From the NCBI GenBank assembly GCA_937900695.1, contig CALCFD010000051.1, positions 1,953 through 65,952 on the forward strand: a DNA stretch of 64,000 nucleotides. The letters are read 5' to 3'. The stretch's first letter is position 1, and each line of letters starts with the position of its first letter. The DNA is from an uncultured Eubacterium sp. Its GTDB lineage: Bacteria > Bacillota > Clostridia > Peptostreptococcales > Anaerovoracaceae. Made by a program: the position numbers and the translations under genes. Under the pieces are notes generated by a model that saw nothing but the letters and a program-made list of their open reading frames with translations, made no database searches and was not told where the DNA came from. This document shows, one piece after another, positions 445-54,786 of this stretch.

Positions 445-659
445 TGTATGTCCAACAATTTATTACACATTTCTAAGATTTGTTACAGATCCTCAAAGCA
501 CGATATATTTTTCTACGTACATATGAAATTTTACCTCAATTTTTTACCCTTTCTGTTATTTCAATCTTTGTGCGGGATTGCCAATTTTCTTACCTAAAAA
601 ATTGCCAATCCGCATCCTAAACCGTACTTTTCGTTTACCTTCCATATCCTTTTGCATTA

Positions 660-714
660 TAACATTAAAAATGATATAATAAATATAGAAAGAATAAGAA
701 AGGAAGTTATGTAA
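660..714 (+). promoter_or_regulatory. Conserved phage promoter (extended -10 TGATATAAT) plus shared leader and RBS AAGGAAG
   Basis: tgatataat at 672-680, then atatagaaag..aaggaagtt. This motif recurs about 20 times in the window. Confidence 0.55.
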
Positions 715-2406: not shown

Positions 2407-2437
2407 CGATCCCTTTATCTTCTTGCTCTTGTTGCAA

Positions 2438-2495
2438 TTATATAATAAATATTGTATCATAAATATAGAAAATAGAAGAAAGGAAGTTATGCTAT
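2438..2495 (+). promoter_or_regulatory. Conserved promoter/leader motif variant
   Basis: tataataaatattgtatcataaatatagaaaatagaagaaaggaagtt upstream of the gene at 2496. Confidence 0.45.
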
Positions 2496-2962: not shown

Positions 2963-2993
2963 GAGCTTCTTTAAAGGAGCTCTTTTTCTTTTG
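2961..2993 (+). terminator. Rho-independent terminator
   Basis: agagcttctttaaaggagctct hairpin followed by ttttcttttg. Confidence 0.5.
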
Positions 2994-3052
2994 CAAAAAT
3001 TAAAAAATAATGATATAATAATTATAGAAGATAAGGAAAGGAGATAAGAAAC

Positions 3053-3768: not shown

Positions 3769-3898
3769 GCGTTGCTTATTTCATTTTCCAAACATTTAGT
3801 TGGCATAAAAATTACCACTTCAGCCTAGAAATCGGTTTGCAAAAAACAAAAAAATAAGTTATAATGAATATAGAAAGTAGGAAAGGAGATTTCTTGTA

Positions 3899-4207: not shown

Positions 4208-4340
4208 AACACAAGAAATTTTCTTGACTTTACTCAAAAAATATCTTATAATATAAGTACAATAAAACAAGAAATATTGGTCATTTTTATATCATTGAAA
4301 TAAAATAATCTTTATTATTTTATGAAAGGTGGTAATAAAA

Positions 4341-5259
4341 ATGAAACTTGCAGACCTAAAAGGTAAAAAATTTGACAAACTTCTTGTTTTAGGTATCGAC
4401 GAAAACAACAAGTATAATGCTAGTGGTAAAATTCAGTGGAAATGTTAGTGCGACTGTGGCAATATAGTATATAAAACTTCTGATTACTTTTCTCGTAAAA
4501 CACAGTCATTAAAGGCTTGTAGCAAGCGTTGTGGCAGTTCAATACCTGAAGGAACTGTTTTTGGTAGATTGACAGTTCTAAAACTTGTAGTAGACGAAAA
4601 AGGTCATTCAAATTATTTATGTAAATGCAAGTGTGGAAATGAAGTTGTTGTCGCCGGAAATAAGTTAAAAAATGGAACAACAAAAAGTTGTGGCTGCTAC
4701 AGAAAAGAAAAAATGCAACAATTAGGCTCTTCTGGAATGAATGATATTACAAACCAACGTTTTGGGAAATTAGTAGCATTAGAACCAACAGATAAAAGAT
4801 AGAATAAATCTGTTATTTGGAAATGTAAATGTGATTGCGGTAATATTCATTATGCCTCATAGCATAATTTAAAGAACGGAGATGTAACAAGATGTAATGA
4901 CTGTAAAATAAAATCTAAAGGCGAAGAGAAAATAGTATAGTTATTGCAAGAAAATGGCATCTCTTTTGAAAGAGAAAAAACCTTTGAATCATGTAGGAAT
5001 CCTAAAACTAACAAGTTATTAAGATTTGACTTTTATGTAAACAATTCATATTTGATAGAATTTGATAGTAAACAACACTATTCTGATACACTTTTCTTTA
5101 GCGAAAATTTCAGTTTAGCTGATTAGTAGTATAGAGACAAATATAAGGAATGGTGGTGTAAAGAAAACAATATACCATTAATTCGCATACCATACACAAT
5201 ACTCGATATCCTGTCTTTTAAAGACATTGATATAAATAATAGTAAATTTATTTTAAGAT
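4341..5259 (+). CDS. Homing-endonuclease-like paralog: three Zn-ribbon repeats (W-x-C-x-C-D/E-C-G-N ... SCGC) plus C-terminal restriction-endonuclease-like domain (RFDF..IEFDxxQH..RIPY); read through multiple in-frame TAGs
   Basis: Frame-3 continuity across ORFs 4569..4802 and 4944..5126. TAG 4446-4448 falls inside the WKC-Q-CDCGN motif. Paralogs at 28104, 35694, 39403 and 63965. Confidence 0.55.
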
Positions 5260-5277
5260 AAAAAGGAGAAAAATACA

Positions 5278-5718
5278 ATGACTAATAAGACACCTAAGGT
5301 TACTAAGAAAGCTAATTATGCCGCTATCGTTGCCATCCTGAACGCCGCTGAGAGCAACGGCCTTGAGCTTGATGGTACCGAGATTACTTATGATAGCCTC
5401 CGTGATTTTGTCGATCACGAAGTTGAACTGCTTGATAATAAGGCCGCTGCAGCTGCAAAGCGTGCCGCCGCTAAGAAGGTTGAGGGAGACGCTCTTCGCG
5501 AGAAGATTTATGATGTACTTACCGATGAGCCTATGACTATCAATGAGATTGTGAAGGCTCTGGATGACGAGGATATTTCTGCCCAGATGGTTACTGCTCG
5601 CCTGACTCAGCTTGCTTCTCCTGAAGTGAACCGTGTTGTGAAGGAGACTGTAACTGTTCCCGCTTCTAGCGAGGGTGGTAAATCTAAGAAGCTCAGTGCT
5701 TATCGTCGCATTGGCTAA
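5278..5718 (+). CDS. Hypothetical protein (146 aa), Ala/Lys-rich middle
   Basis: Strong RBS aaaggagaaaaa. Terminator downstream. Confidence 0.55.
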   Translation: MTNKTPKVTKKANYAAIVAILNAAESNGLELDGTEITYDSLRDFVDHEVELLDNKAAAAAKRAAAKKVEGDALREKIYDVLTDEPMTINEIVKALDDEDISAQMVTARLTQLASPEVNRVVKETVTVPASSEGGKSKKLSAYRRIG

Positions 5719-5767: not shown

Positions 5768-5924
5768 ACCACAATTTAGTACAAACTGCAAATCCAGTTG
5801 GGCCGCCTGGAAAATCAATTATATAGCATACTATATATACTATAACAAGAGCAAGAATAGATAGAGGAACCATTAATTTCACCTTCTTTTATTTATATAT
5901 TTATTATAACAAAAGCAAATAGAA

Positions 5925-5975
5925 TTGTCAATCTGGTAATTTTATCTCAAGATTGACAGTCTTTACATTATATGC
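5925..5975 (+). promoter_or_regulatory. Sigma70-type promoter (TTGACA, 17-nt spacer, TATAAT) overlapped by an inverted repeat ttgtcaatct..agattgacag (operator-like)
   Basis: The only canonical -35/-10 pair in the window; contrasts with the -35-less extended -10 promoters elsewhere. Confidence 0.45.
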
Positions 5976-6007
5976 TATAATAAATATATAAGCAAAGGAG
6001 GCTTTAT

Positions 6008-6788
6008 TATGATTTTTAGTGTAAGCCATCATTCTAATAAGATGAAGTAGGCAGGCGAAATACGCTGTCCTTATAATCAATTAGGAACAATAATTAAATT
6101 TATTAAAGAAAATCCTTCAAAAAGATATAATATTATTATTCCTGATGATTTAACTTAGATACAATTAAAAAAATTAGCCGAGCAAGTTGATATAGTTAAA
6201 ACAATAGCAGAAGACTACACCATTCAATGTGGAAATATCTTGCAACTAAGAGACTTAAAAGATATGGGATATAATAGATATTTGCGGTTTCCGGTTACCG
6301 ATTGGGAGACTCTGGAAGAATTGCGGGAAGCCGAGGTTAGTGACCTCTATATAGATGGCCCATTGGGATTTCAAATGGATGCAATCGCAAAGATTAAAGG
6401 AGATATGAAGATAAGAGTATCACCAACTATCTCCCCTAATATCTCTATTTCCGCAAATAGAAAGCCTTCAAGTTTCTTTATTCGCCCAGAGGATTTATCG
6501 CTATATTCTCATGCTATTGATATTATAGATTTTAAAGAAAGAGATCAAGATAAAGAAGATACTCTATTTGCAATCTATAATAGAGGAACTTTTAACTACG
6601 ATGTTAATCTCTTAATAGATGGTCTTCCCGTGAGAAATAATCTTTTATTTGGCGATAATTTTGCTAAAAAGAGATTAAATTGTGCTCAAAAATGTAATAT
6701 TCCTGGTCATCAATGCCATTACTGTGATACCTATTTTTCTGTAACTCTCAAAATGGGAGAATTAGCTAAATCTAGCGCAAAGAAATAA
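6008..6788 (+). CDS. Hypothetical protein with C-terminal Cys/His cluster, contains in-frame TAGs
   Basis: Frame continuous from ATG about 6008 into ORF 6240..6788 when TAG is read as sense. Start position uncertain by one nt. Confidence 0.4.
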
Positions 6789-6853
6789 TTAGATTTTATT
6801 ATTTATATATATTATAATATAAATATAAAGATAATAAAGGAGTGTTTCTAAAG

Positions 6854-9196: not shown

Positions 9197-9319
9197 AAAT
9201 TTTGGGTATGGAAGTTTAAGATATTCAATATAAAGTTTAATAATAGTACAATCTCCTTACTTATTCAAGAGAGGTATAGAAGATTTAATCAGGCTTTATA
9301 TCTCTCTTGAAAATATTAA

Positions 9320-9345
9320 AAATAAATGATATAATATTTATAGAG
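9320..9345 (+). promoter_or_regulatory. Conserved extended -10 promoter driving the first tRNA sub-operon
   Basis: tgatataat at 9328-9336. Confidence 0.45.
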
Positions 9346-9511
9346 GGTAAGGAAAGAAGAGTTTACAAACCTCTCCTACCGATAATTTGAAAATTAAATA
9401 TAAATATTATATAATATTTATATAAGTTATCGACAGTAACTATAAATAACTGCGTTGGTAAGGCGTGAGTGAGGCTGATATGCGTTAAATAAAATACTCA
9501 CTTATATATAT

Positions 9512-17499: not shown

Positions 17500-17830
17500 G
17501 GGGATGCGTAGGTTCGACGGGGTAATGAGAAACTAGGATACACGGGTAGGCATACCGCCTTAAGGAGCAACAAAATTAAACGACAACGATTATTTTTCTA
17601 ATAACATCGCAGCTTGAGCATAGCTCGCTGTTTTAATCCCTTGGATTTCTCTATTTTCCTTTAATTAAATAGAGTGGTGGAGGCAGAGTACAACTGGTAC
17701 TGCTCTATGGTTATTAGTAGTTTCAGCTAAAACTCCATTTATAAAAGTTTAAAGTGAAACTATCGTGTAATAATATTCTAGTTATGTAGTTATTTCGGAC
17801 ACGGAGTGCGACTCTCCGTCATCTCCACCA
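17500..17830 (+). ncRNA. ssrA: tmRNA (SsrA) with tag-peptide reading frame
   Basis: 5' end ggggatgcgtaggttcgacgggg matches the tmRNA 5' consensus (GGGG..GGAUUCGACGGG). 3' end ggacacggagtgcgactctccgtcatctccacca forms a T-arm-like stem plus acceptor with G3-U70 and CCA. Internal frame gca aca aaa tta aac gac aac gat tat ttt tct aat aac atc gca gct tga at 17567-17617 encodes ATKLNDNDYFSNNIAA. Confidence 0.7.
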
Positions 17831-17916
17831 AGAGTTTCTTTCTTCTCTTAAAAAGAAAGTGGTGGATAATCGAAACCCAATTCGGCTCCATATATAACAT
17901 ATGTGGAGGAATTAAT

Positions 17917-18315
17917 ATGACAGAATTAGAAAGAGGATATTTGGCTGGCATTATTGATGGTGAGGGAAGTATTACTCTCACCAAGGATAAATAGTTTAGG
18001 TATCCAGTATTAGAAGTGTCTAGTACAACATCTCAAATTGTAGAATATCTTAAAGAGCATTTTGGAGGAGTTATTTCCAAGAAAAATGAGCGTAATCCAA
18101 AATGGAAACAGGCTTATATTTGGAAGATAGAGCGGAGAAAGGCTATTTCTTTGTTAGAAGAGATTGTCAGTTATCTTAATGAACCAAAGAAAAAAGCTAG
18201 AGCTTAGTTAATAATTAAAGACTATATACGCTTAACTCCTAGAAATGGGAGATATTCTGAAGAAATAAAATAGCAAAAACTTAAATTTGAAGAAGAATTT
18301 TTCAAGATAGAATAA
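17917..18315 (+). CDS. LAGLIDADG homing endonuclease (single-motif type), TAG-containing
   Basis: MTELERGYLAGIIDGEGSITL, with RBS ggagga. In-frame TAGs joined in the same frame as ORF 18016..18207. Confidence 0.7.
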
Positions 18316-19124: not shown

Positions 19125-19324
19125 TCTCGCTTAAATAGCGAGAATATGTATCACTCCTTTCCTATACATATAAGACTCAATACAGCAAATAAATGTAACA
19201 ATACTTGTAAGTAACATCTGGCTAAGATATATTTCTTTTACAAGGGAAGTCAAGAAATATTAAGCTTTTAGACAAGCCCTTTTGAGTCTAGTTTTTTAAA
19301 ACTTTTGAAAATATTAAAAATAAA

Positions 19325-19366
19325 TGATATAATATTTATAGAAAGTTTGAGAAAGGAAGTTATGAA
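19325..19366 (+). promoter_or_regulatory. Conserved promoter/leader
   Basis: tgatataatatttatagaaagtttgagaaaggaagtt. Confidence 0.5.
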
Positions 19367-20314: not shown

Positions 20315-20430
20315 GGGGAGTTAGCTCAGTTGGTAGAGCGCGTTATAGTTGGGTCTTGACAAAGACCATAACAGCAATCGTACTTTGCTTAGGGTGCACG
20401 ATGTCACAGGTTCGAGTCCTGTACTCCCCG
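20315..20430 (+). tRNA. Aberrant tRNA gene with ~40 nt of extra structured sequence between D-arm and T-arm; identity unresolved
   Basis: Canonical acceptor ggggagt/actcccc, D-arm tagctcagttggtagagc and T-arm acagg-ttcgagt-cctgt enclose 66 nt. These include a 33-nt hairpin gttat..ataac and a 17-nt hairpin agcaa-tcgtact-ttgct. Confidence 0.4.
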
Positions 20431-22250: not shown

Positions 22251-22387
22251 TCCTTGGGTAGTTTATATTAAACTTTCTATCTATAATCTTATTGTATAAA
22301 GAGAGAGAAAACAATAGGCTAAAGTAGTTAAATGAAAAATAACTAACTCTTATATAATGTGAGAGTTTTAAAGAAAGGAGAATAAGT

Positions 22388-22690
22388 ATGATTACTGTTG
22401 GTAAGAATATGGATAATAAAGCTATATATGGAACTGTAAAGTTCCTTTGTGATTACCAAAGTGATGTTGCTAATCTCCCTAATAACCGCAAACCAGGTAG
22501 TACGGCTTATGTAATTGAAAACGGCAATAGATATATTCTTAACTCTAATAAAGAGTGGGTATTGCAGCCTGCGGGCGGTGGTGGAGGCGTGTTACCTCCA
22601 GATGATACCACTATTATCTATGACGGTGGAGAAGTTACATTAGATGATCCCGTAGATACCATCGTATATGATGGTGGACTGATTGGTTAA
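22388..22690 (+). CDS. Tail-fibre module protein (Gly-rich C-terminus)
   Basis: 100-aa ORF with RBS aaaggagaataag. Confidence 0.4.
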   Translation: MITVGKNMDNKAIYGTVKFLCDYQSDVANLPNNRKPGSTAYVIENGNRYILNSNKEWVLQPAGGGGGVLPPDDTTIIYDGGEVTLDDPVDTIVYDGGLIG

Positions 22691-22702
22691 GGAGGGAGCA
22701 TT

Positions 22703-23065
22703 TTGGCTGAGGTAACTTATAAAACTATATTTCAATTAAAGCGAGGTACTCTTGAAGCTTGGAATACAGTTAATCCAATCTTGAGACAGGGTGAACCAGG
22801 TTTTGCTTATGATGCTAATATCTTGCGAATTGGCGACGGAACAAGAGCATGGAAGAATTTACCAGATATTGCGGGAGGCGAGTATTCAGTCTCCGCAGAT
22901 GGTGCTAGTGTAATTCTTACAGGTAGCGTATTATCGCTATATGGCTACGCTTCCGCAAGTGAAGGCCAAATTCCGCAAAAAGGAGCAAATGGCCTGGTAT
23001 GGATTGATAAAGATATTCCAATGACGGAAGAAGAAATTCTCGATACTTTATCATCAACTGAGTAA
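22703..23065 (+). CDS. Tail fibre N-terminal domain protein (KRGT..NP.L..GEPG..I.RIGDGT.AWKNLP motif)
   Basis: Motif typical of phage tail-fibre/hyaluronidase-like N-termini. Confidence 0.5.
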   Translation: MAEVTYKTIFQLKRGTLEAWNTVNPILRQGEPGFAYDANILRIGDGTRAWKNLPDIAGGEYSVSADGASVILTGSVLSLYGYASASEGQIPQKGANGLVWIDKDIPMTEEEILDTLSSTE

Positions 23066-23080
23066 AGGAGAGATTGATTC

Positions 23081-23643
23081 ATGGCAAAGGTTCTTGATCA
23101 AGCTGGTCTTTCTATTTTATGGAATAGAATTACAGATAAATTTAATAACTTGAGTTTGCGCAGGGATAATGATTACAATTATTTAAGTACATTTATTCCT
23201 AAAGATGGAGAAGTATGCTTTGTTGATACATCAAGAGATGGATTAAGAGTTAAAGTGGGCGACGGTGTTACTTAGTTTGGTTCTTTACAATATCTTGATG
23301 AATAGAATAATATAATCATAATTGGTTATTTTTATAATAATCAATTTTATTATGACTTAGAACACGTCAATGTAATGATTGGATCTACTAAAAAGATTTA
23401 TGTAGATAAACAAACAAGTGTACTTTATCTATATAATGGAACAGAATATATAGAGGTAACTCAATCTATTCCTATGGCAAACAGTTCTTAGGCCGGAACA
23501 TTAAAACTTTATTCTGTTCCAGGAAAGAATGAAGATGGTACAATGACTCAAAAAGTAATTACTGAATTACTCAATGAGAAAGCTGGAATCTCTCTTGATG
23601 AAACCTAGAATGAGGTTTTAATTTTTACAACTGTTGATTAAAA
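23081..23643 (+). CDS. Tail-fibre-associated protein, read through three in-frame TAGs
   Basis: The frame of ORF 23081..23275 continues to TAA about 23641 when TAG is sense. Confidence 0.45.
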
Positions 23644-23660
23644 ATGGAGGTAAATAATTT

Positions 23661-24938
23661 ATGGCTCAAACTTATACTAACACACCTGTTCTTTCTAAAG
23701 TAAAGATTGGCGAACAGACCTATTGGTTAAAAGACGCTGATGTACGTGCCATTCTTGATACTTTTGGAACTATTGTAACTTATAATGTTTCTACCAGCGC
23801 TCTTGATGTTAATGAGAGTATTCCTAATGCTGGTCAGATTAAAGCTTATTTAGAGTCTCAAATTCAGGGCTTGACTGGTGCTATGCACTTCGCTGGTGTA
23901 GTTACTCGTGAAGGAGAAGAGAACGACCTTGAAGCTCTTGCTAGAAAGTTCCCAGATGCAAAATCCGGCGACGTAGCCGTTATGCAGGATAACAAGAAAG
24001 AGTATGTTTATGATGGAACCACTTGGAGAGAGCTCGGTGATGAAGGTCTCTATTTAACTAAAGCTGATGCTGAAGCTACTTATGTTCCTAAGACTGCTAC
24101 TATTGCTGGCGTTGATCTCCAGGATAACATTGAAGCTAACGAATTAGAGACTGCTCTTGGTCTTGGTGATCTTGCTAAAAAGGATAGCGCTACTACTACT
24201 TTAACCGATTATGCTAATGGTATCACTGGAGCTTCTTATACTCCTGCTGGTACTGTAAGTGTAACCCTGTCTTAGACCGCTACTAAGGTAGCTTCCGCAG
24301 GTAAATTTACTCCTGCTGGCACCGTTGCAGGTAATGTGACTGCTACTGGTACAGTTGCTATTGCAGCAGATAATGAGAATGGCTTCCAAGTAACTGGCAC
24401 TGTTGCTGCTCCTACTGTTACCGTAACTCCTCAAACCGTTGAGATTAGAGGTATTACTGGAGTGGGTACTCTTCCAAGTTATACAGCGGCTCAGTATACT
24501 GCTCCTAGTGTGACTGAAAGCAAGAGCGCCTTTGCTACTGCTGGTATGGTTGCTGCTGTTGATGGTACTGATACTGAAATGCTCGTAATTAGTGCTGCTG
24601 GTACCGCTGAGGCTCTTACTTCTACTGGATTTAATGCTGGTAGCTTTACCGATGGTCAGTTCAGCACTGGTACTCTTCCAACAATGGCTGAACCTACTGC
24701 TGTAATGACTGGTGCTACTGCTAGCGCTAGCGCTCCTACATTTACTGGTGGTAAGATTGCTGCTACATTCACTGGTACTCAAGCTGCTATTAGCGCTACA
24801 TTTGCTGGTACAGAGGGTGATGTAAGCGTAAGTGGTAACTATGATAAGGCTGGAGTTCAGACTTCTACCTTCTCTGGTACTGAAGCTACTATTACTCCTA
24901 CTCTTAAAACTGGGAACAAGGAAGTTACTGTTCAGTAA
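23661..24938 (+). CDS. Tail fibre protein with Thr/Ala/Gly-rich repeats, one in-frame TAG about 24276
   Basis: ORFs 23661..24275 and 24336..24938 share a frame. N-terminus KIGEQTYWLKDADVRA is tail-fibre-like. Confidence 0.55.
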
Positions 24939-24969
24939 TTTCTAATATAGAATAAAGAAGGTGACGTGA

Positions 24970-25438
24970 GTGGCAGATCTTTCTAAAATTAAACTCGGTA
25001 GCACCACTTACTCACTTAAAGATACTGAGGCTAGAGCGGCTATCCAAGCTCTTTAGACTGCTGTAGCCTCTTCTTTAATTTTCAAAGGTGTTGTTTCCAG
25101 TGCTACTGATATTACCTCATTGATTAACTATGAAATAGGCTGGACTTATAAAGCATCTACCAATTTCACTATTGAAGGTTTAGGTAAAGTAGAAAGCGGA
25201 GATATGATAATATGTACATCTAGCTATAGCAATGCTTTCAATGCAACCGACTGGACAGTAGTATAGAATAATGTAGATGTAATGGAAGGCGCTTCTGATA
25301 GTTCTGGAGGCGTAAAAGGGCTTGTTCCAGCTCCCGTTCAAGGGGATAATAATAGGTTCCTTCGTGGCGATGGTACTTGGTAGTCTCCTAGTGTTGAATG
25401 GGGTCTATTTTCTGAGTTAATAATATAAGAATAAAGGC
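24970..25438 (+). CDS. Tail fibre-like protein (GTG start, MADLSKIKLGSTTYSLKDTEARA..), several in-frame TAGs
   Basis: RBS aaggtga. Coordinates within about 2 nt. Confidence 0.45.
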
Positions 25439-25442
25439 TCGT

Positions 25443-25478
25443 TTAGGCGAGCCTTTATTTTTTTTACCTGTTATATTG
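25443..25478 (+). terminator. Rho-independent terminator
   Basis: aaaggctcgtttaggcgagccttt followed by a T8 run. Confidence 0.65.
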
Positions 25479-25546
25479 GGAATTTGAAAAATCAAAAAAA
25501 TTATTATATAATATATATAGAAATTAAGGAAAAGGAGATTTTGAGT

Positions 25547-44685: not shown

Positions 44686-45934
44686 AGATATTCGGTTCTA
44701 TGATACTTGTTCTCTTTTATTGGCAGGAGAGAGCTTGTTCGATAGAGAAGAAAAATTTGTAGTATCTTCTATTACTTTTAAAGAACTTGAAAGAATAAAG
44801 ACTGCAAGCAACAAAGATCCAGATATAAAGTATTCTGCTCGACTATTATTGCATTTATTTGAGAATCATCCAGATATGTATGATGTTGTAGTACATCAAG
44901 TAGATTATGAAGATGTAATTTCTAATATGTCTCTTGATATAACGGATGATACAAGAATTTTATCCGATGCTATTTGGTATAATAATAATCAACGAGTGGA
45001 CGAAACTATTTTTGTAACTAATGATTTAAGTTTGAAACATATAGCTAATTTATTCTTTGGATCAAGTATGATTGAAAGTGTACAAGAAGACATTGATGAT
45101 TATAAAGGCTATAAAGAAATAAATGCAAATGATAAAACATTGGCCGCTTTTTATCAAGATCCAAGCTTTAATCACTATAATCTTCATATTAACGAATATC
45201 TAATTATCAGAGATGTTGATGGATAGATTGTAGATCTAAGAGTATGGACTGGAAATGACCATAGATATTTAAATTATAATGACTTTAATTCTATCTGGTT
45301 CGGCAATATAAAACCCTATCGTGGAGATGTCTATCAAAAACTTCTTTTTGACAGCTTAAATAATAATAAAATTACTTTAATTAAAGGGCCTGCTGGCTCA
45401 GGAAAAACTATTATTAGTTTAGCTTATCTAATGTCAAAATTAGATAAAGGAGATTTAGATAGAATTATTGTATTTTGTAATACTGTAGCAACCGCAAATA
45501 GTGCTAAGTTAGGATATTTACCTGGAACAAGAGATGAGAAATTATTAGACTCTTAGATCGGAAATCTGCTAATTTCAAAATTCGGTGGACGAGATGGAGT
45601 AGAATAGCTAATTGAAGAAAATAAATTAGTTTTATTGCCTATGTCTGATATTAGAGGATATGATACCTCTGGAATGAAAGCTGGAATCTATATCTCTGAA
45701 GCTCAAAACTTAGACCGTGCATTAATCAAACTCGCTTTACAAAGAGTAGGAGACGATTGTGTTTGTATTATCGACGGTGATGAAAAAACTCAAGTCGATG
45801 ATGTACACTTTGCAGGTAATAGTAATGGTATGAAAAGAGTTTCCAAAATTTATAGAGGCCATGATATATATGGAGAAGTTGAACTCCGAAATATTTATAG
45901 ATCGAGAATCGCGCAAATAGCTGAATATATTTAA
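44678..45934 (+). CDS. phoH: PhoH-like ATPase with N-terminal PIN-like domain (YlaK-type), three in-frame TAGs
   Basis: MDKDIRFYDTCSLL (PIN-like), then LIKGPAGSGKT (Walker A). Frame-2 continuity from ORF 44606..45226 through TAGs at about 45227, 45554 and 45605 into ORF 45635..45934. Confidence 0.6.
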
Positions 45935-45979
45935 TTAAAACCCAGCCTATATAGGCTGGGTTTTATTATTGGAAGGAAG

Positions 45980-46839
45980 ATGAAAATGAAATATAGTATA
46001 AAAAAACATAACCTCTATCCTTATGTTTAGATTGTCACAATACCGTTTGTAAATATTGAAAAAATTGATTTTGCCCTATGTAACCAGCCGACAGAAACTC
46101 CAGATTCTTACTATAAAAGGCAAGTCAATAAACCCGATATTATAACTAATGGAGGATTCTTTGCCATGAATAATGGAAATACTTGTTTTAGTTATAAAGA
46201 TGAAGGAAGTATTATTCAATCTGATTTTCGTCATGGAGTTGCAATTAACGGCAATAAAACACTTTTGTATACTACACTAAAAGATCATAATACTGCCAGA
46301 GATTTTATTGCAGCTTATCCTGCATTAGTTGTAGATAATAAAAAAGTAGTTATTGAAGATGGGAAAGAATTAGATTATAAAGCCCGTAGAACTTGTATCG
46401 GTTGGGATACAAATAATTATTATATTGTAACAGTAGACTCTCCAGGCTTAGCATATAAAAGTTTATAGGAAATCTTTCTTGAACTGAAAGTATAGTATGC
46501 TATTAATTTAGATGGAGGAGGATCTACTAGATTATTAATAAATGGAAAAAGAGAAACTTCTCAAATCTATGCAAGACCTGTTGACAATGTAATGTGTGTA
46601 TATCTTAAAAAAGAACAAAAAAAGATTTTTTATCGAGTTCAAGTTGGAGCCTTCGCGTCTAAAGCAAACGCAGACAAATTATTGAAAGAGTTAAAAGAAA
46701 AAGGTTTTAGTGGCTATGTTAGAAAAATAGGACTTTTTTATAAAGTCTAGCTAGGTGCTTTTTCTGTAAAATTAAATGCAGAAAGACTAAGAGATAAATT
46801 AAAAGCTGCTGGATATAATTCTTTTATTACTACGAAATA
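45980..46839 (+). CDS. Phosphodiester-glycosidase-family protein with two C-terminal SPOR repeats; cell-wall-associated, lysis cassette
   Basis: ..TNGGFFAMNNG..AYPALVVDNKKV..CIGWDTNNYYIVTV..NLDGGGSTRLLINGK.., then YRVQVGAFASKANADKLL and YKV-Q-LGAFSVKLNAERL. Several in-frame TAGs. Confidence 0.5.
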
Positions 46840-46844
46840 AAATG

Positions 46845-48017
46845 ACTAACGCACAAATTATTTGGGAATATTTTAAGAATAAAGGCTTTAGTAATTGCGG
46901 GATCGCAGGCTTAATGGGAAATCTTTATGCAGAAAGCGGTCTCATTCCAACAAATTTATAGAACTCGTATGAAAAAAAATTAAAAATGACTGACTCTGAA
47001 TATACTTATGCAGTAGATAGCAAAAGATATAAAAACTTTATAAAAGATGGAGCAGGATATGGGTTGGCGTAGTGGACATTTTGGACTAGAAAACAAAATC
47101 TTCTTTAGTTCTGTCAAAATAAAGGTAAGTCTATTGGAGATTTAAATACACAATTAGATTTTTTATATTAGGAGTTAATTACAAATTATCCTAATTTAGT
47201 TCAAATCTTAAAAACTGCCACTTCTGTTGAAGTGGCATCTACTGCTGTACTACTTTAGTTTGAACGACCGGCTGATCAAAGCTTTGCAGTTCAACAAAGA
47301 AGAACTAATTATGGCCAATAGTATTATAATAAATTTGTTAATACTTTAAATATAGTTGAAGGAGGTAATAAAATGAAATACAACAATAGCAATAAACCAC
47401 TTCAATGCATGATGACAAATAGTACCTGTTATAAACAAACTCGTACAATGTAGATTAAGGGAATTTTATGGCATAGTACAGGTGCAAATAACCCTAATTT
47501 AAAAAGATATGTCTAGCCTAGTGAAAACGATCCTAATTATAATAAGTTAATAAATAAATTAGGAAAAAATACTAGTGGAAATGATTGGAACCATATCTCT
47601 CATTAGGCTGGTTTAAACTGCTGGATTGGGAAACTTGCAGATGGAACAGTAACAACTGTTCAAACCATGCCCTGGAATTATAGACCTTGGGGATGTGGAT
47701 CAGGCTCTAAAGGCTCTTGCAATAATGGATGGATCTAGTTTGAAATTTGTGAAGATAATCTAAACAATGCAGATTATTTTAACAAGGTATATGAAGAAGC
47801 TTGCTAGATTACAGCTTATTTATGTAAAATGTATAATATTAACCCTTTAGGAACTACTACTTTAAATGGTATTAAAGTTCCTACTATTTTATGTCATGCA
47901 GATAGTCATAAACTTGGTTTAGGCTCTAATCATGGAGATGTAAATCATTGGTTTCCAAAATTTGGAAAAAGCATGGAAACAGCGAGAAAAGATGTCTATA
48001 ACTTAATGACAATTTAG
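46845..48017 (+). CDS. Endolysin: N-terminal lysozyme-like (phage tail-lysozyme type) domain plus C-terminal N-acetylmuramoyl-L-alanine amidase domain; possibly two genes with an internal start at 47373
   Basis: CGIAGLMGNLYAESGL..GYGLA-Q-WT, then ..GILWHSTGANNP..ILCHADSH..GDVNHWF. Frame 3 stays open across multiple TAGs. An internal GGAGG RBS precedes ATG 47373. Confidence 0.55.
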
Positions 48018-48032
48018 GAGGATGATGAAGAT

Positions 48033-48248
48033 ATGACTGATGAAAAATTTGCTGAACTTATGAATAATTGGCTAACAAATAAAGCTAATGAAAAAGAAAC
48101 TTGGGGCTCTGATAATCTTAAATGGGCAAACGATAATGGGATTATGGCAGGAGATGCTGCTGGTAGAATGATGCCTAATAAGTTTTGTACTAGACTTGAA
48201 ACAATAACTATGCTAAGAAGATTAGCTGAAAAGTTGGGATTAAAATGA
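48033..48248 (+). CDS. Hypothetical small protein
   Basis: 71-aa ORF. Confidence 0.35.
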   Translation: MTDEKFAELMNNWLTNKANEKETWGSDNLKWANDNGIMAGDAAGRMMPNKFCTRLETITMLRRLAEKLGLK

Positions 48249-48583: not shown

Positions 48584-48628
48584 AAAGGCTTAATAAGTTT
48601 TAACTTATTAAGCCTTTTATTTATTTGT
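48584..48628 (+). terminator. Rho-independent terminator after the lysis cassette
   Basis: aaaggcttaataagtt ttaa cttattaagccttt followed by a T-rich run. Confidence 0.65.
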
Positions 48629-48769
48629 AGTTTGATTTTTTTTAAAATATATGGTATCATATATTTAGAAAATAAAAGAAAAGAAATAGAAAGGATTAAA
48701 GCGATTAGAAGTTTATGAAGAATATAAAGATATATACTCTCTAAGTGGCTTTAATAAGGTGTGGTATAA

Positions 48770-49234
48770 ATGATTAGCGTGTATGTTGACGGATCTTGTC
48801 GTGGAAATCCTGGTCCAGGAGGCTTTGGAGTTATCGTTGTAGAAGATGATAAAGTAATTGCAGCATATCAAGAGCAGCATAGTTCTACTACAAACAATAG
48901 AATGGAGATGTCTGCTATTATCTATGCGCTTGAGAATTATGGCGCTAGAGAAGGAGATTTCTTTGCTCCTATTGTTTATAGCGATTCTTCATATTGCGTG
49001 AATAGCTTTACTAATTGGATAAATGGTTGGAAAGCTAATGGATGGAAGCGAGCAGGAAATAAGAAATTAGAAAATCTTGACTTAATTCAAACTTATGATA
49101 TGTTAAGACAAGAATTTAAGATTGATTTACGGAAAATTAAAGGTCATGATGGAATACTTTATAATGAACTTGCTGATGGTTTAGCTACTGGACAAATTTC
49201 CGTAGAAGATGTTTTAAGAGAGTATGGTGATTAA
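48770..49234 (+). CDS. rnhA: Ribonuclease HI
   Basis: VYVDGSCRGNPGPGGFGVIV and NNRMEM motifs. 154 aa. Confidence 0.7.
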   Translation: MISVYVDGSCRGNPGPGGFGVIVVEDDKVIAAYQEQHSSTTNNRMEMSAIIYALENYGAREGDFFAPIVYSDSSYCVNSFTNWINGWKANGWKRAGNKKLENLDLIQTYDMLRQEFKIDLRKIKGHDGILYNELADGLATGQISVEDVLREYGD

Positions 49235-51144: not shown

Positions 51145-53511
51145 ATGAGTTTAATTACTGAAGTTGATATCCTTGATGAGGCAAAAGATAATTTCTTAAC
51201 TTATGCAGAAGAAGTTCTTACCGACAGAGCTATCCCCGCCGCAGAGGATGGTTTACTTAGCGCACAAAGAAAAATTTTATGGACAATGGAAGATTATCTA
51301 AAAATGGACAACAAGAGCAAAACAAAAAAATGTAATGCTATTGTTGGTTCAACATTGGCTACTTCTTATTTTCATGGAGATATTGCCTGTTATGGAGTGC
51401 TTAGAAAAATGGCGCAGTCTTTCTTAATGCGTTATCCTTTAATTACTGGCCAAGGCCAGTTAGGTACTCAAGAAAGTAATGATATGTTTTCTTCTTCTCG
51501 TTATACAGAAGCCAAACCTTCTCAATTCGCAGATTTGATGATGAATGACTTTAAGAAAGAAGTTGTTCCTGTAAAAGAGACATATAATGGTGAATTTATG
51601 GAACCTGTTGTATTACCATCTTTATTCCCTAATGCAATTTGCAATGGTCGTCAGGCTATCGGAATTTCTATGGCTCATAACTCTGCTCCACATAATTTAA
51701 CAGAGGTATGTAATGCAGCAATAGCCATGATTGAAAAAGGAGATCTAACTATTGATGAATTATTATCTTATATTCCAGGGCCAGATTTTCCCCTCGGCGG
51801 AACAGTATTAAATATAAAAGATGTGCGGGCTGCTTTTGAGACCGGTAAATCTAAGGTTTCTTTAAAAATTCAGGGTGATTATGAGATTAATAATCAAACT
51901 ATTACCTTTACAAGTATTCCTTATAGGACTTATAGAAACAAGATAAAAGAACAAATTGAAAAAAATATCGACATTTTTAGTGAACTATTAGAAGATTTTG
52001 ATGATGAGTCTAATATTGGACAAAACAAACTTGTTTTTCATGTAAAGCCTGGTATTTCAATTTCAAAAGCTCTTAATTCTTTATTTCTATTAACTGATTT
52101 GCAGTCAACTCTATCTTATAATATGAATTATATTGTAAATGGGACTCCTAAATTATGTTCAATGAAAAATTTACTGCATGAGTATATAAATCATCAAGAG
52201 CAAGTTCTTATTAAAGCTACAGAGTTTGATAAAAATAAAGCAGAAGCAAGAGCACATATTCTTGAAGGTTTAATTGCCGCGGTAGATAAAATTGATGAAG
52301 TCATTACATTAATTAAACAATCTGCCGGAAGAGCGGATGCTAGATCTCGATTGATAGAATTTTTATCTGTTGACGAAATTCAAGCAAATGCAATCTTGGA
52401 TATGAAACTAGGGAAATTAACTAAAATTGACAAAGAAGAATTAGTTAATGAACTACAAGAAAAAAGAGAATTTATTGCTCGGTGTATAGAAATTTTAACT
52501 AAGCAGGATATAAGAAATAACAAACTAATTAAGATAATTACTGAACTTAAAAATAAATATGGAGATGCTCGTAGAACTAAACTAACAAACACTGAAATTC
52601 CGAAAGCTACAAAAGAACAGCCAGTTATTGAAGCTAAGGATTGTGTAGTAATAGTAACTAAAAAGAATACTATAAAAAGGATTGATATTAAGAATTTTAA
52701 ACCTCAAAAAAGAAATACTACTGGGGTAAAAAATAATGGAGATATTATAGTATTCTCTCAGAAAACTAATACTCAAGATACATTAATGGTATTCTCTTCT
52801 AAAGGAAAAATGTATCGACTGTTAGTTGATAGCATTCCAGAAGGAACGAATACCTCTATCGGTGCTCCAGTTTCTAGTTTTATTGAATTTGAAAATGGAG
52901 AAACTCCTATGGCTTATACTACTTTAACTAGAGATACAGATAAGAAATTTGTATTTTTTGCTACTAAAAACGGCATTGTGAAAAAAGTTCCATTAAATGA
53001 ATATGATGCTATGAAAAGAACTGGAATTGTAGCTATTAAGCTTAAAGACGGAGATGAGTTAGCAGCAGCAACCTTTATAAATCAAGAGGAAATGATGTTA
53101 ATTACGAAAAATGGAATGTCTATAAGATTTCCAACCGCAGAAATGCCAATTTCTTCAAGAACCGCACAAGGGGTAAAAGGTATGAATGTTGATAACGAAG
53201 ATCAAGTTATTGCTGCTTTACCTATTTCAAATCCTGCGAATTGTTTATCTGTTGTTTCCATTGACGGTTTAGGAAAAAGAACAGAATTAAAAGAATTTAA
53301 TAGTCAAAACCGTGGAGGTAAAGGTCTTTCTTGCTACAAAAATCCAATTGCCGGAGCTGAGTTGGTCGCAGAGGATGATTTGCTCTTAATTTCTGGAAAT
53401 AAAACCTCTATTGTAGTTAAAGCAACCGAACTACCAATGTTAAATAGAACTTCACTTGGTAATATTATGCTGAAGAATAATGAGAAAGTAATTTCAATGT
53501 CTAAGATTTAA
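51145..53511 (+). CDS. Type IIA DNA topoisomerase, DNA-cleavage subunit (GyrA/ParC-like; T4 gp52-like)
   Basis: EDGLLSAQRKILW, and catalytic Tyr context SSRYTEAK. 788 aa, no TAG. Confidence 0.7.
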   Translation: MSLITEVDILDEAKDNFLTYAEEVLTDRAIPAAEDGLLSAQRKILWTMEDYLKMDNKSKTKKCNAIVGSTLATSYFHGDIACYGVLRKMAQSFLMRYPLITGQGQLGTQESNDMFSSSRYTEAKPSQFADLMMNDFKKEVVPVKETYNGEFMEPVVLPSLFPNAICNGRQAIGISMAHNSAPHNLTEVCNAAIAMIEKGDLTIDELLSYIPGPDFPLGGTVLNIKDVRAAFETGKSKVSLKIQGDYEINNQTITFTSIPYRTYRNKIKEQIEKNIDIFSELLEDFDDESNIGQNKLVFHVKPGISISKALNSLFLLTDLQSTLSYNMNYIVNGTPKLCSMKNLLHEYINHQEQVLIKATEFDKNKAEARAHILEGLIAAVDKIDEVITLIKQSAGRADARSRLIEFLSVDEIQANAILDMKLGKLTKIDKEELVNELQEKREFIARCIEILTKQDIRNNKLIKIITELKNKYGDARRTKLTNTEIPKATKEQPVIEAKDCVVIVTKKNTIKRIDIKNFKPQKRNTTGVKNNGDIIVFSQKTNTQDTLMVFSSKGKMYRLLVDSIPEGTNTSIGAPVSSFIEFENGETPMAYTTLTRDTDKKFVFFATKNGIVKKVPLNEYDAMKRTGIVAIKLKDGDELAAATFINQEEMMLITKNGMSIRFPTAEMPISSRTAQGVKGMNVDNEDQVIAALPISNPANCLSVVSIDGLGKRTELKEFNSQNRGGKGLSCYKNPIAGAELVAEDDLLLISGNKTSIVVKATELPMLNRTSLGNIMLKNNEKVISMSKI

Positions 53512-53513
53512 AG

Positions 53514-53542
53514 ATAAAAGTGGTTTAACCACTTTTATCTTT
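53514..53542 (+). terminator. Hairpin terminator
   Basis: aaaagtggtt taa ccactttt followed by atcttt. Confidence 0.5.
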
Positions 53543-53610
53543 AGTTGATTTTTCTTATATATTATATTATAATAAATATAAAGAGATAAAGAAAGGATAA
53601 AGTTATATAA

Positions 53611-54717: not shown

Positions 54718-54786
54718 TCCATTTGACACTAAAATAATTTTATTATATAATAATTATGTAATTCAAAGGGATAAAGGATATAAATT

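Follow-up and report, generated by a model that had tools for sequence, protein, structure and literature searches.

Repeated near-consensus sigma-70/sigma-A promoter sequences with a uniform start region in an uncultured phage

The early regions of phages T5 and T4 carry many near-consensus copies of a -35/N17/-10 promoter (PN25-type in T5), which also stand before tRNA clusters. The early promoters of T5 are conserved past the -10 element as well, where they share a discriminator, ATATT (PMC7472727). Furthermore, composite promoter-terminator motifs known as PeSL have been described in T4-type phages (PMC2839356, PMC4122927). In a clostridial species, native promoters have the form ATCATTGACAW-N12-RTGNTATAATAAWADHA with an A at +1 (PMC13340025). 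Here we describe a comparable repeat in 64,000 nucleotides of DNA (hereafter the window), positions 1,953 to 65,952 of contig CALCFD010000051.1 in assembly GCA_937900695.1, which is filed under an uncultured Eubacterium sp. and belongs to an uncultured phage. The repeat combines a promoter sequence with a conserved start region and, before protein-coding genes, a ribosome-binding site. It follows the same design as the early promoters of T5 and T4; compared with them, a TRTG/TGn -16 element is frequent, and the likeness is one of design without sequence homology, known here from sequence alone. The repeat is real but ordinary, a form of a known design that is typical of phages and occurs across the clade.

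The 9-mer TGATATAAT has 13 exact matches in the window, all on the + strand, against 2.47 expected, and none of 100 dinucleotide shuffles reached this number. A position weight matrix (PWM) of 69 positions and 51 bits was built from 18 copies, from -30 to +39 around the 9-mer. It gave 28 matches on the + strand with scores of 12-68 and three on the minus strand, two of which are palindromic shadows of + strand sites, leaving one genuine copy (5911). In 30 first-order Markov randomisations the top score was 6.2, and none was above the threshold. A generic sigma-70 scan contributed two further sites (4224-4252 and 27332-27360), bringing the total to about 29 promoter sites, every one intergenic. 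A first-pass annotation had listed the motif at 20 places, and inspection of 75 nt upstream located a copy before the ATG or tRNA cluster at all 20. Two of its coordinates are corrected here, to an ATG at 36549 instead of 36550 and a 9-mer start at 9327 instead of 9328. Several of the copies are variants, with AGTTATAAT at 3857, TGGTATTAT at 30457 and TATTATAAT at 53565. Before the gene at 2496, the element aligned with the leader is TTGCAA-N17-TATCAT (2432-2460) and not TTATATAAT at 2438, and the copy at 10044 is without the ATWTAT block between the -10 element and AGAAAGG. Additional copies absent from the earlier list lie at 6810, 11468, 40933 and 48652 on the + strand and at 5911 on the minus strand.

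The consensus joins TTGAAA/TTGACA, N17 and (TR)TGnTATAAT to the AT-rich discriminator ATWTAT, after which the start is A(+1)G(+2). At 24 of the 29 sites a TTGnnn -35 element (TTGAAA, TTGACA, TTGCAA/T, TTGATT/A or TTGACT) is placed exactly 17 bp from the -10 element, and the spacer is 17 bp at all sites having a TTG -35. The -10 hexamer is exactly TATAAT at 26/29 sites, the variants being TATCAT (2452, 48652) and TATTAT (30457). The TGn extension is found at 16/29 sites, 12 of which also have a TTG -35, and the full Gram-positive TRTG -16 motif occurs in 10 copies. The TRTG -16 rule was reportedly set out by Voskuil and Chambliss in 1998. Sites without TTG carry TG in four of five cases, and scored sites without TG carry a TTG -35 in 11 of 12; this trade-off is the usual sigma-70 compensation rule. 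Moreover, every match scoring 11-12 of 12 in the generic sigma-70 scan (1-60 kb, + strand) belongs to this promoter set. Among the matches listed from other phages, the T, T, G and A of the -35 element are kept in 68, 67, 63 and 64 of 70 non-redundant copies, respectively. The first-pass view of sigma-70-family promoter sequences before the phage transcription units, including the tRNA sub-clusters, is borne out by these elements and their placement. However, its statement that no -35 is recognisable is contradicted by the 24 sites with TTGnnn at 17-bp spacing, and its assignment to the extended -10 class (TG with a poor -35) fits just four sites, 30457, 33269, 36507 and 40158, the last three of which are placed on the T-run of a terminator. 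Judged by their elements, the sites are best read as full-consensus housekeeping-sigma (sigma-70/sigma-A) promoters and not as members of the extended -10 class.

Gram-positive sigma-A (TRTG) promoters and the clostridial RTGNTATAATAAWADHA promoters (PMC13340025) have the same TTGACA-like -35, (TR)TGnTATAAT, A/T-rich discriminator and A start. The clostridial motif thus indicates that the core and the A/T-rich discriminator would suit a Firmicute housekeeping holoenzyme. The phage copies, in contrast, are far more uniform and additionally carry a fixed AGAAAG block, which was not found on genuine chromosomal contigs.

The leader shared by the copies consists of two parts, a start region AGAAAGTWAAGA and a ribosome-binding site, GAAAGGAAG or AAAGGAG. 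After TATAAT, the consensus reads ATWTAT-A-G-AAAG-TWAAGA, and transcription would start at the A 7 nt after the -10 element, giving T(-1)A(+1)G(+2). For an unbiased test, 178 non-redundant TTGA-N15-17-TGnTATAAT promoters were collected from other phage loci with the exact downstream block excluded. Their consensus, ATTTATAGAAA, retains T(-1)A(+1)G(+2) and an AT-rich discriminator, with frequencies of 75% for A at position 1, 85% for T at 6, 83% for A at 7, 50% for G at 8 and 78-84% for A at 9-10. Directly before tRNA genes, 21 non-redundant promoters have the consensus ATTTATAGAAAGT, and the block is at least as strong there as in 254 promoters before a Shine-Dalgarno (SD) sequence and ATG. 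Since the start block is equally conserved before tRNA genes, it is a part of the promoter, namely discriminator and initial transcribed sequence, and not a translation signal. With regard to the first-pass suggestion that a phage regulator or RNA-binding protein may recognise the leader, conservation of the first ~12 transcribed bases before tRNAs and in unrelated-looking phage contigs points rather to a role at the level of RNA polymerase. The initial transcribed sequence has been argued to be a promoter element in its own right (PMC5961368). Furthermore, the transcript of a T5-derived cassette begins ATAAATTTGAGAGAGGAG (PMC9303389). Compared with AGAAAGTTAAGAGAGGAG, a form common in relatives of the window, 14 of 18 positions match, which points to convergence on one design. 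We take this cassette to be PN25.

The second part of the leader is found at protein-coding units, where a long SD, GAAAGGAAG(T) or AAAGGAG, places the ATG 31-38 nt after the -10 element at most sites; leader length is 25-32 nt at most sites. Structured RNA in the leaders was considered and rejected, as they fold more weakly than random windows do (mean folding energy -3.2 vs -5.8 kcal/mol) and the only Rfam matches were tRNAs and the tmRNA. The leader (AGAAAG...GAAAGGAAG) might instead be an RNA element for a phage translational repressor or endoribonuclease, in the way that RegA and RegB of T4 act on the ribosome-binding sites of early mRNAs. In its favour, promoter-proximal genes prefer GAAAGGAAGT, of which 8 of the 12 + strand copies fall inside these leaders, and internal genes mostly have AAGGAGG or AAGGAGA as SD. 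However, GAAAGGAAGT is typical of 5'-proximal cistrons in general, including two after tRNAs without a promoter, and GAAAGGAAG stands before the open reading frames (ORFs) at 11911 and 20896, which come after tRNAs without a promoter. GAAAGGAAG matches extended pairing with the anti-Shine-Dalgarno sequence at the 16S rRNA 3' end. Moreover, the first 12 nt are conserved before untranslated tRNAs, and a RegA- or RegB-like protein was absent among the proteins searched, making an RNA element of this kind very unlikely. As an individual peculiarity, the leader of the 9780 copy (9795-9818) contains an 8-nt tandem duplication, AGAAAGTA twice, which does not occur in relatives.

The genes behind the promoters are of an early/middle phage set. 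In the left 37 kb, the first gene behind most promoters is an orphan of 56-110 aa. Family searches identified gyrase B and A, ATP-dependent DNA ligase, RNase H, RNA ligase, polynucleotide kinase and a phosphatase, and the RNA ligase, kinase and phosphatase resemble an RNA-repair set. In translations that take TAG as sense, ORFs for a DnaB-like helicase, a primase, ThyX and uracil-DNA glycosylase and several homing endonucleases were recognised by eye. Orphans, tRNAs, gyrase, ligase, RNase H, helicase/primase-like and RNA-repair genes together make up the early/middle set downstream of the promoters. A sigma factor or RNA polymerase encoded by the phage and similar to sigma-A in specificity could in principle read these promoters; in its favour, bacterial chromosomes seldom carry the extended motif. 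However, the two hexamers, their 17-bp distance and the compensation between TG and -35 match the housekeeping type exactly, the units must fire first because they precede orphan early-type genes, and no sigma factor or RNA polymerase, nor a protein resembling either, was found among the ~30 proteins searched in the 64-kb window. Reading of these promoters by a polymerase or sigma factor of the phage's own is thus extremely improbable, and neither it nor a leader-binding translational regulator has positive support.

A large clade of uncultured phages shares this promoter design. The GenBank phage collection contains no close cultured phage: the nucleotide match was confined to the tRNA-His of phAss-1, the best GyrA match was 36% identical, and a 56-nt consensus query gave generic weak promoter matches only. 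In the literature, TATAATATTTATAG was not found, and the phAss-1 paper is silent on promoters. In IMG/VR, by comparison, 64 loci encode a GyrA 51-86% identical, on contigs of up to ~165 kb. Across 1.18 Mb around gyrA of these 64 relatives, the window-trained matrix matched 207 times on the gene strand and 8 times on the opposite strand. After gyrA, most relatives have a hairpin followed by TTGAC/TTGAT, the -10 element, ATTTATATAA or ATATATAGAA and an SD; a PWM match above 19 is present in ~36 of 60 loci, and the hairpin sequence and the downstream gene vary. The terminator-promoter pair of 53508-53610 stands at the same place in most GyrA relatives.

The exact 21-mer TGATATAATATTTATAGAAAG occurs in at least 120 IMG/VR stretches. 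Among the matches listed, these loci gave 70 non-redundant flanks, of which almost all have TTGA at the expected spacing, and 365 co-oriented PWM matches vs 4 opposite. In 596 Gb of bacterial and archaeal genomes, the 21-mer is found in just 30 stretches, 16 of them with promoter context. At least 8 of these 16 lie on contigs of metagenome-assembled genomes (MAGs) that are short or of phage size, with 3-7 copies in the same orientation inside 8 kb, which marks them as binned phage DNA; among them is L150, a relative of the window. The remaining 14 stretches have no -35 and fit chance, for which a rough estimate gives ~9 were all these genomes of this composition. The full motif thus marks phages and was not encountered at ordinary promoters of chromosomes. 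Occurrence of the 21-mer at host chromosomal rRNA or tRNA promoters was considered and rejected, as the contigs with promoter-context matches are phage-like or are short pieces of MAGs, and the other matches lack a -35 and are chance-like. Four such contigs, L150 included, and others, in which 8 kb hold 6-7 co-oriented copies, have been binned in Lachnospiraceae, Treponema, Erysipelotrichia and Oscillospiraceae MAGs; probably they are of phage origin and were assigned to bacteria in error.

The main rival reading is that the block ATWTAT-AGAAAG is a temporal-class mark on a host-type core, through which a phage factor would silence or boost the promoters later. The block exceeds the requirements of sigma-70 in uniformity and is enriched in phages. 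T5, for which such control has been proposed, offers a parallel: its early promoters share ATATT, the late ones depart from them chiefly at this element, and the RNA polymerase-discriminator contact is weakened by gpT5.026 (PMC7472727). In addition, a promoter-like site with neither -35, TG nor block stands at 22350, ahead of a tail-fibre-like cluster that contains TAG codons. However, a second promoter class is not definable in the window, outside of which the late promoters lie, and no candidate factor was found. The block also obeys the rules of strong promoters (pyrimidine at -1, purine at +1, G at +2 and a purine-rich initial transcribed sequence), so that a general optimum suffices without a dedicated reader, and a temporal mark appears unlikely. 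Upstream of the same tail-fibre-like cluster (22388-25428) lies GTATAAAGAGAGA (22294-22306), which is kept in four relatives though the flanking intergenic DNA differs. It could be a different promoter type; a late promoter class built on it was rejected, as it is single-copy in all sequences compared.

Taken together, the sites are most probably about 29 near-consensus housekeeping-sigma promoters for the unmodified host polymerase, which would organise the early/middle region into short co-oriented units. Their elements, spacing, strand bias, intergenic placement and conservation in relatives are direct observations. Upon phage entry, the unmodified host holoenzyme (sigma-A in Firmicutes) would transcribe from these sites. 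The uniform discriminator, the A+1/G+2 start and the purine-rich initial transcribed sequence AGAAAGTWAAGA may have been selected for fast open-complex formation and escape, and the short unstructured leader with its long SD for efficient translation. The copies would divide the region of the tRNA and replication genes into small transcription units of one orientation. Recognition by the host RNA polymerase, the exact start, a high strength and early/middle timing are what these features lead us to predict. Some points weigh against this interpretation. Use by the polymerase of the host, probably a Firmicute, and the start site are deductions from the sequence. Moreover, the 21-mer is common in viral contigs and has promoter context on only ~16 contigs in 596 Gb, and this phage bias means that the discriminator/start block is more uniform in phages than the host consensus alone predicts. 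Such a uniform block could reflect selection for maximal strength or a phage-specific reader. That it is more than an optimum for the host polymerase, namely a dedicated control element through which a conserved phage factor would time or shut off early transcription in the way of gpT5.026, and perhaps also a homology patch for PeSL-like cassette shuffling, is considered rather unlikely.

Many of the copies are associated with terminators. A hairpin lies upstream of ~9-10 of the 29 copies (2961-2984, 25427-25462, 30390-30424, 33224-33250, 36455-36489, 40112-40146, 43777-43804, 48584-48617 and 53508-53544), and a strict hairpin finder gave adjacency for 21% of copies vs 6% of random positions. 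About one third of the copies come straight after an intrinsic terminator, which insulates the units from each other. This arrangement partly resembles PeSL, in which a stem-loop followed by a near-perfect sigma-70 early promoter is repeated among small orphan ORFs that vary between close relatives. It differs from PeSL in that an adjacent hairpin accompanies ~1/3 of copies, the phage lineage is another one and no cassette with two flanking copies was seen.

The terminator-promoter-leader units might additionally act as PeSL-like recombination cassettes that swap small genes between copies, an idea compatible with host-promoter use. Besides the hairpins abutting ~9-10/29 copies, 14-nt spacers are identical in two pairs (9780/11041 and 9327/19325), homology with relatives breaks at or beside the promoters at 10053, 48695-48788 and 53574, and the gene behind the conserved gyrA terminator-promoter differs among relatives. 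However, the post-gyrA insert of three relatives does not lie between two promoter copies, other breakpoints are homing-endonuclease insertions (57568-58308, 4273-5301 and 13293-14263), intergenic breakpoints are expected anyway, and column-shuffled spacers already give 12/14 identities. Exchange through such cassettes is therefore possible but doubtful. Insertion of a cassette between promoter copies after gyrA was rejected, the insert being a small membrane ORF with no second promoter. Spread of the promoters by recent duplication was also rejected, as identical spacers occur in two pairs only and column shuffles reach 12/14. In the promoter at 10044 (10044-10071), the discriminator block is deleted exactly where homology with the relative L052 ends.

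Table 1. Promoter copies and TAG-containing reading frames of the window. An ATG is given by its position; "by eye" marks assignments made by inspection.
Feature	Coordinates	Strand	Promoter and leader	Context	PWM score
Promoter and leader	652..714	+	TTGCAT-N17-TGATATAAT-AAATAT-AGAAAGAATAAGAAAGGAAGTTATGTAA; AGAAAG..AAAGGAAGTT	ATG 715, 63-aa orphan ORF; copy of the first-pass annotation	48.7
Promoter and leader	2432..2495	+	TTGCAA-N17-TATCAT; conserved AAATATAGAAAA..AAAGGAAGTT leader	ATG 2496	31.5
Promoter and leader	2991..3052	+	TTGCAA-N17-TGATATAAT	6 nt past terminator hairpin 2961-2984; ATG 3053	62.0
Promoter and leader	3837..3898	+	TTGCAA-N17-(AGT)TATAAT, no TG	ATG 3899	14.6
Promoter	4224..4252	+	TTGACT-N17-TATAAT (11/12), weaker start-region match	Upstream of TAG-containing endonuclease-like insert 4329-5261	
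Sole minus-strand copy	5874..5931	-	TTGACA-N17-TGTTATAAT, leader	ATG 5873; divergent from 5953 promoter	30.0
Promoter and leader	5953..6008	+	TTGACA-N17-TGCTATAAT (12/12 + TG)	ATG 6009	36.6
Weak copy	6790..6853	+	TAGATT -35, TATTATAAT	ATG 6854, uracil-DNA-glycosylase-like ORF (by eye)	19.0
Tandem promoters, 80 bp apart	9307..9435	+	TTGAAA-N17-TGATATAAT; TTGAAA-N17-(TTA)TATAAT	Before tRNA-Ile 9512 and tRNA-Leu 9666	67.6, 51.2
Promoter and leader	9760..9826	+	TTGAAA-N17-TGATATAAT; duplicated AGAAAGTA in leader	ATG 9827	59.2
Promoter	10024..10071	+	TTGAAA-N17-(TTA)TATAAT fused to AGAAAGGAAGTT, no discriminator block	ATG 10072; L052 homology ends 10053	12.5
Promoter	11021..11069	+	-35 through start region identical to 9780 copy	Before tRNA-Asp 11157	51.7
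Promoter	11448..11516	+	TTGAAA-N17-(TTG)TATAAT	Before tRNA-Ala 11517	15.7
Promoter and leader	14737..14799	+		ATG 14800	61.6
Promoter and leader	19305..19366	+	Spacer identical to 9327 copy	ATG 19367	66.4
Promoter and leader	25484..25546	+		After terminator 25427-25462; ATG 25547	56.3
Promoter	26461..26502	+	TTGACA-N17-TGATATAAT (12/12), leader only 7 nt	108-aa ORF 26503-26829, then suppressor tRNA(CUA) 26916-26990	45.2
Promoter	27332..27360	+	TTGCAA-N17-TATAAT	Before tRNA-Leu and tRNA-Cys pair 27761-28029	
Variant	30437..30496	+	TGGTATTAT, poor -35	12 nt after terminator 30390-30424; ATG 30497	23.3
Extended -10 copy	33249..33310	+	TTTATT at -35	On T-run of hairpin 33224-33250; ATG 33311	60.9
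Extended -10 copy	36487..36548	+		On T-run of hairpin 36455-36489; ATG 36549	62.8
Extended -10 copy	40138..40198	+		On T-run of terminator 40112-40146; ATG 40199, NinI-like phosphatase	58.9
Promoter	40913..40960	+	TTGATA-N17-TATAAT	ATG 40961, polynucleotide-kinase-like	16.8
Promoter and leader	43885..43944	+		Downstream of terminator 43777-43804; ATG 43945	47.8
Promoter	48632..48769	+	TTGATT-N17-TGGTATCAT; 103-nt leader	After terminator 48584-48617; RNase H / GyrB / GyrA unit	34.6
Promoter	53545..53610	+	TTGATT-N17-TATAAT	Abutting terminator 53508-53544; ATG 53611, DNA ligase	19.2
Promoter	54723..54786	+	TTGACA-N17-TATAAT (12/12)	ATG 54787	44.7
Promoter	57149..57205	+	TTGACA-N17-TGATATAAT (12/12 + TG)	ATG 57206	59.4
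Promoter	60361..60425	+	TTGATT-N17-TGATATAAT	ATG 60426; upstream of helicase-like and primase-like ORFs (by eye)	54.6
TAG-read-through ORFs	4329-5261, 16455-17216, 28104-28841, 39403-40113, 44606-48248, 55337-56245, 57633-58301				

The window has ~36% GC and nearly all of its genes on the + strand. The only minus-strand unit is a small ORF (~52 aa) starting at 5873, driven by the minus-strand promoter at 5903-5931; this promoter stands back to back with that at 5953-5981 on the + strand, so that 5871-5981 holds two perfect-consensus promoters. There are 28 tRNAs, one with a CUA anticodon (26916-26990), and a tmRNA. TAG appears to serve as a sense codon in this phage, and TAG read-through fills gaps of the ORF map with long protein-like ORFs containing up to 15 in-frame TAGs (Table 1). 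The first gene after each matrix-detected promoter contains no TAG, the gene at 43945 being counted only if its TAG is a real stop.

Several other features of the window were recorded. Most homing-endonuclease-like ORFs are TAG-rich; by eye, they comprise four GIY-YIG-like ORFs (13348-14151, 16455-17216, 55337-56245 and 57633-58301) and one LAGLIDADG ORF (17806-18315), as well as three paralogues with a zinc ribbon and an endonuclease fold (4329-5261, 28104-28841 and 39403-40113). The endonuclease ORFs at 4329-5261, 13348-14151 and 57633-58301 are missing from close relatives, indicating at least three recent insertions. The LAGLIDADG ORF starts at the 3' end of the tmRNA (17500-17830), which matches Rfam RF00023 with 69.9 bits and was not reported by ARAGORN. 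Additionally, a 116-nt Rfam tRNA match at 20315-20430, uncalled by ARAGORN, and a 91-nt tRNA-Ile(UAU) at 9512-9602 are long and may contain introns or be mis-calls. Cargo unusual for a phage is found at 28878-33215 and 42245-43771, namely an 809-aa protein with major-vault-protein shoulder/repeat domains and an SPFH domain, a 501-aa DUF7788/DUF2828 protein and a 508-aa SPFH/flotillin-like protein, the gene of which is replaced in close relatives.

The design repeats a pattern known from T4, T5 and SPO1, and the finding is useful rather than surprising. The sites provide a map of ~29 transcription units in an uncultured phage of ~100-165 kb that is TAG-recoded and has tRNA, tmRNA and gyrase genes. 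Within this map, the 26461 promoter stands ~400 nt upstream of the amber-suppressor tRNA needed for the recoded genes. The 21-mer together with the weight matrix offers a cheap marker for contigs of the clade that are mis-binned in bacterial MAGs. The clade sharing TATAAT-ATWTAT-AGAAAG is itself very large and uncultured, and consists of Firmicute phages from the gut and rumen. Furthermore, the combined cassette of promoter, start region and ribosome-binding site could serve as a strong expression element in gut Firmicutes.

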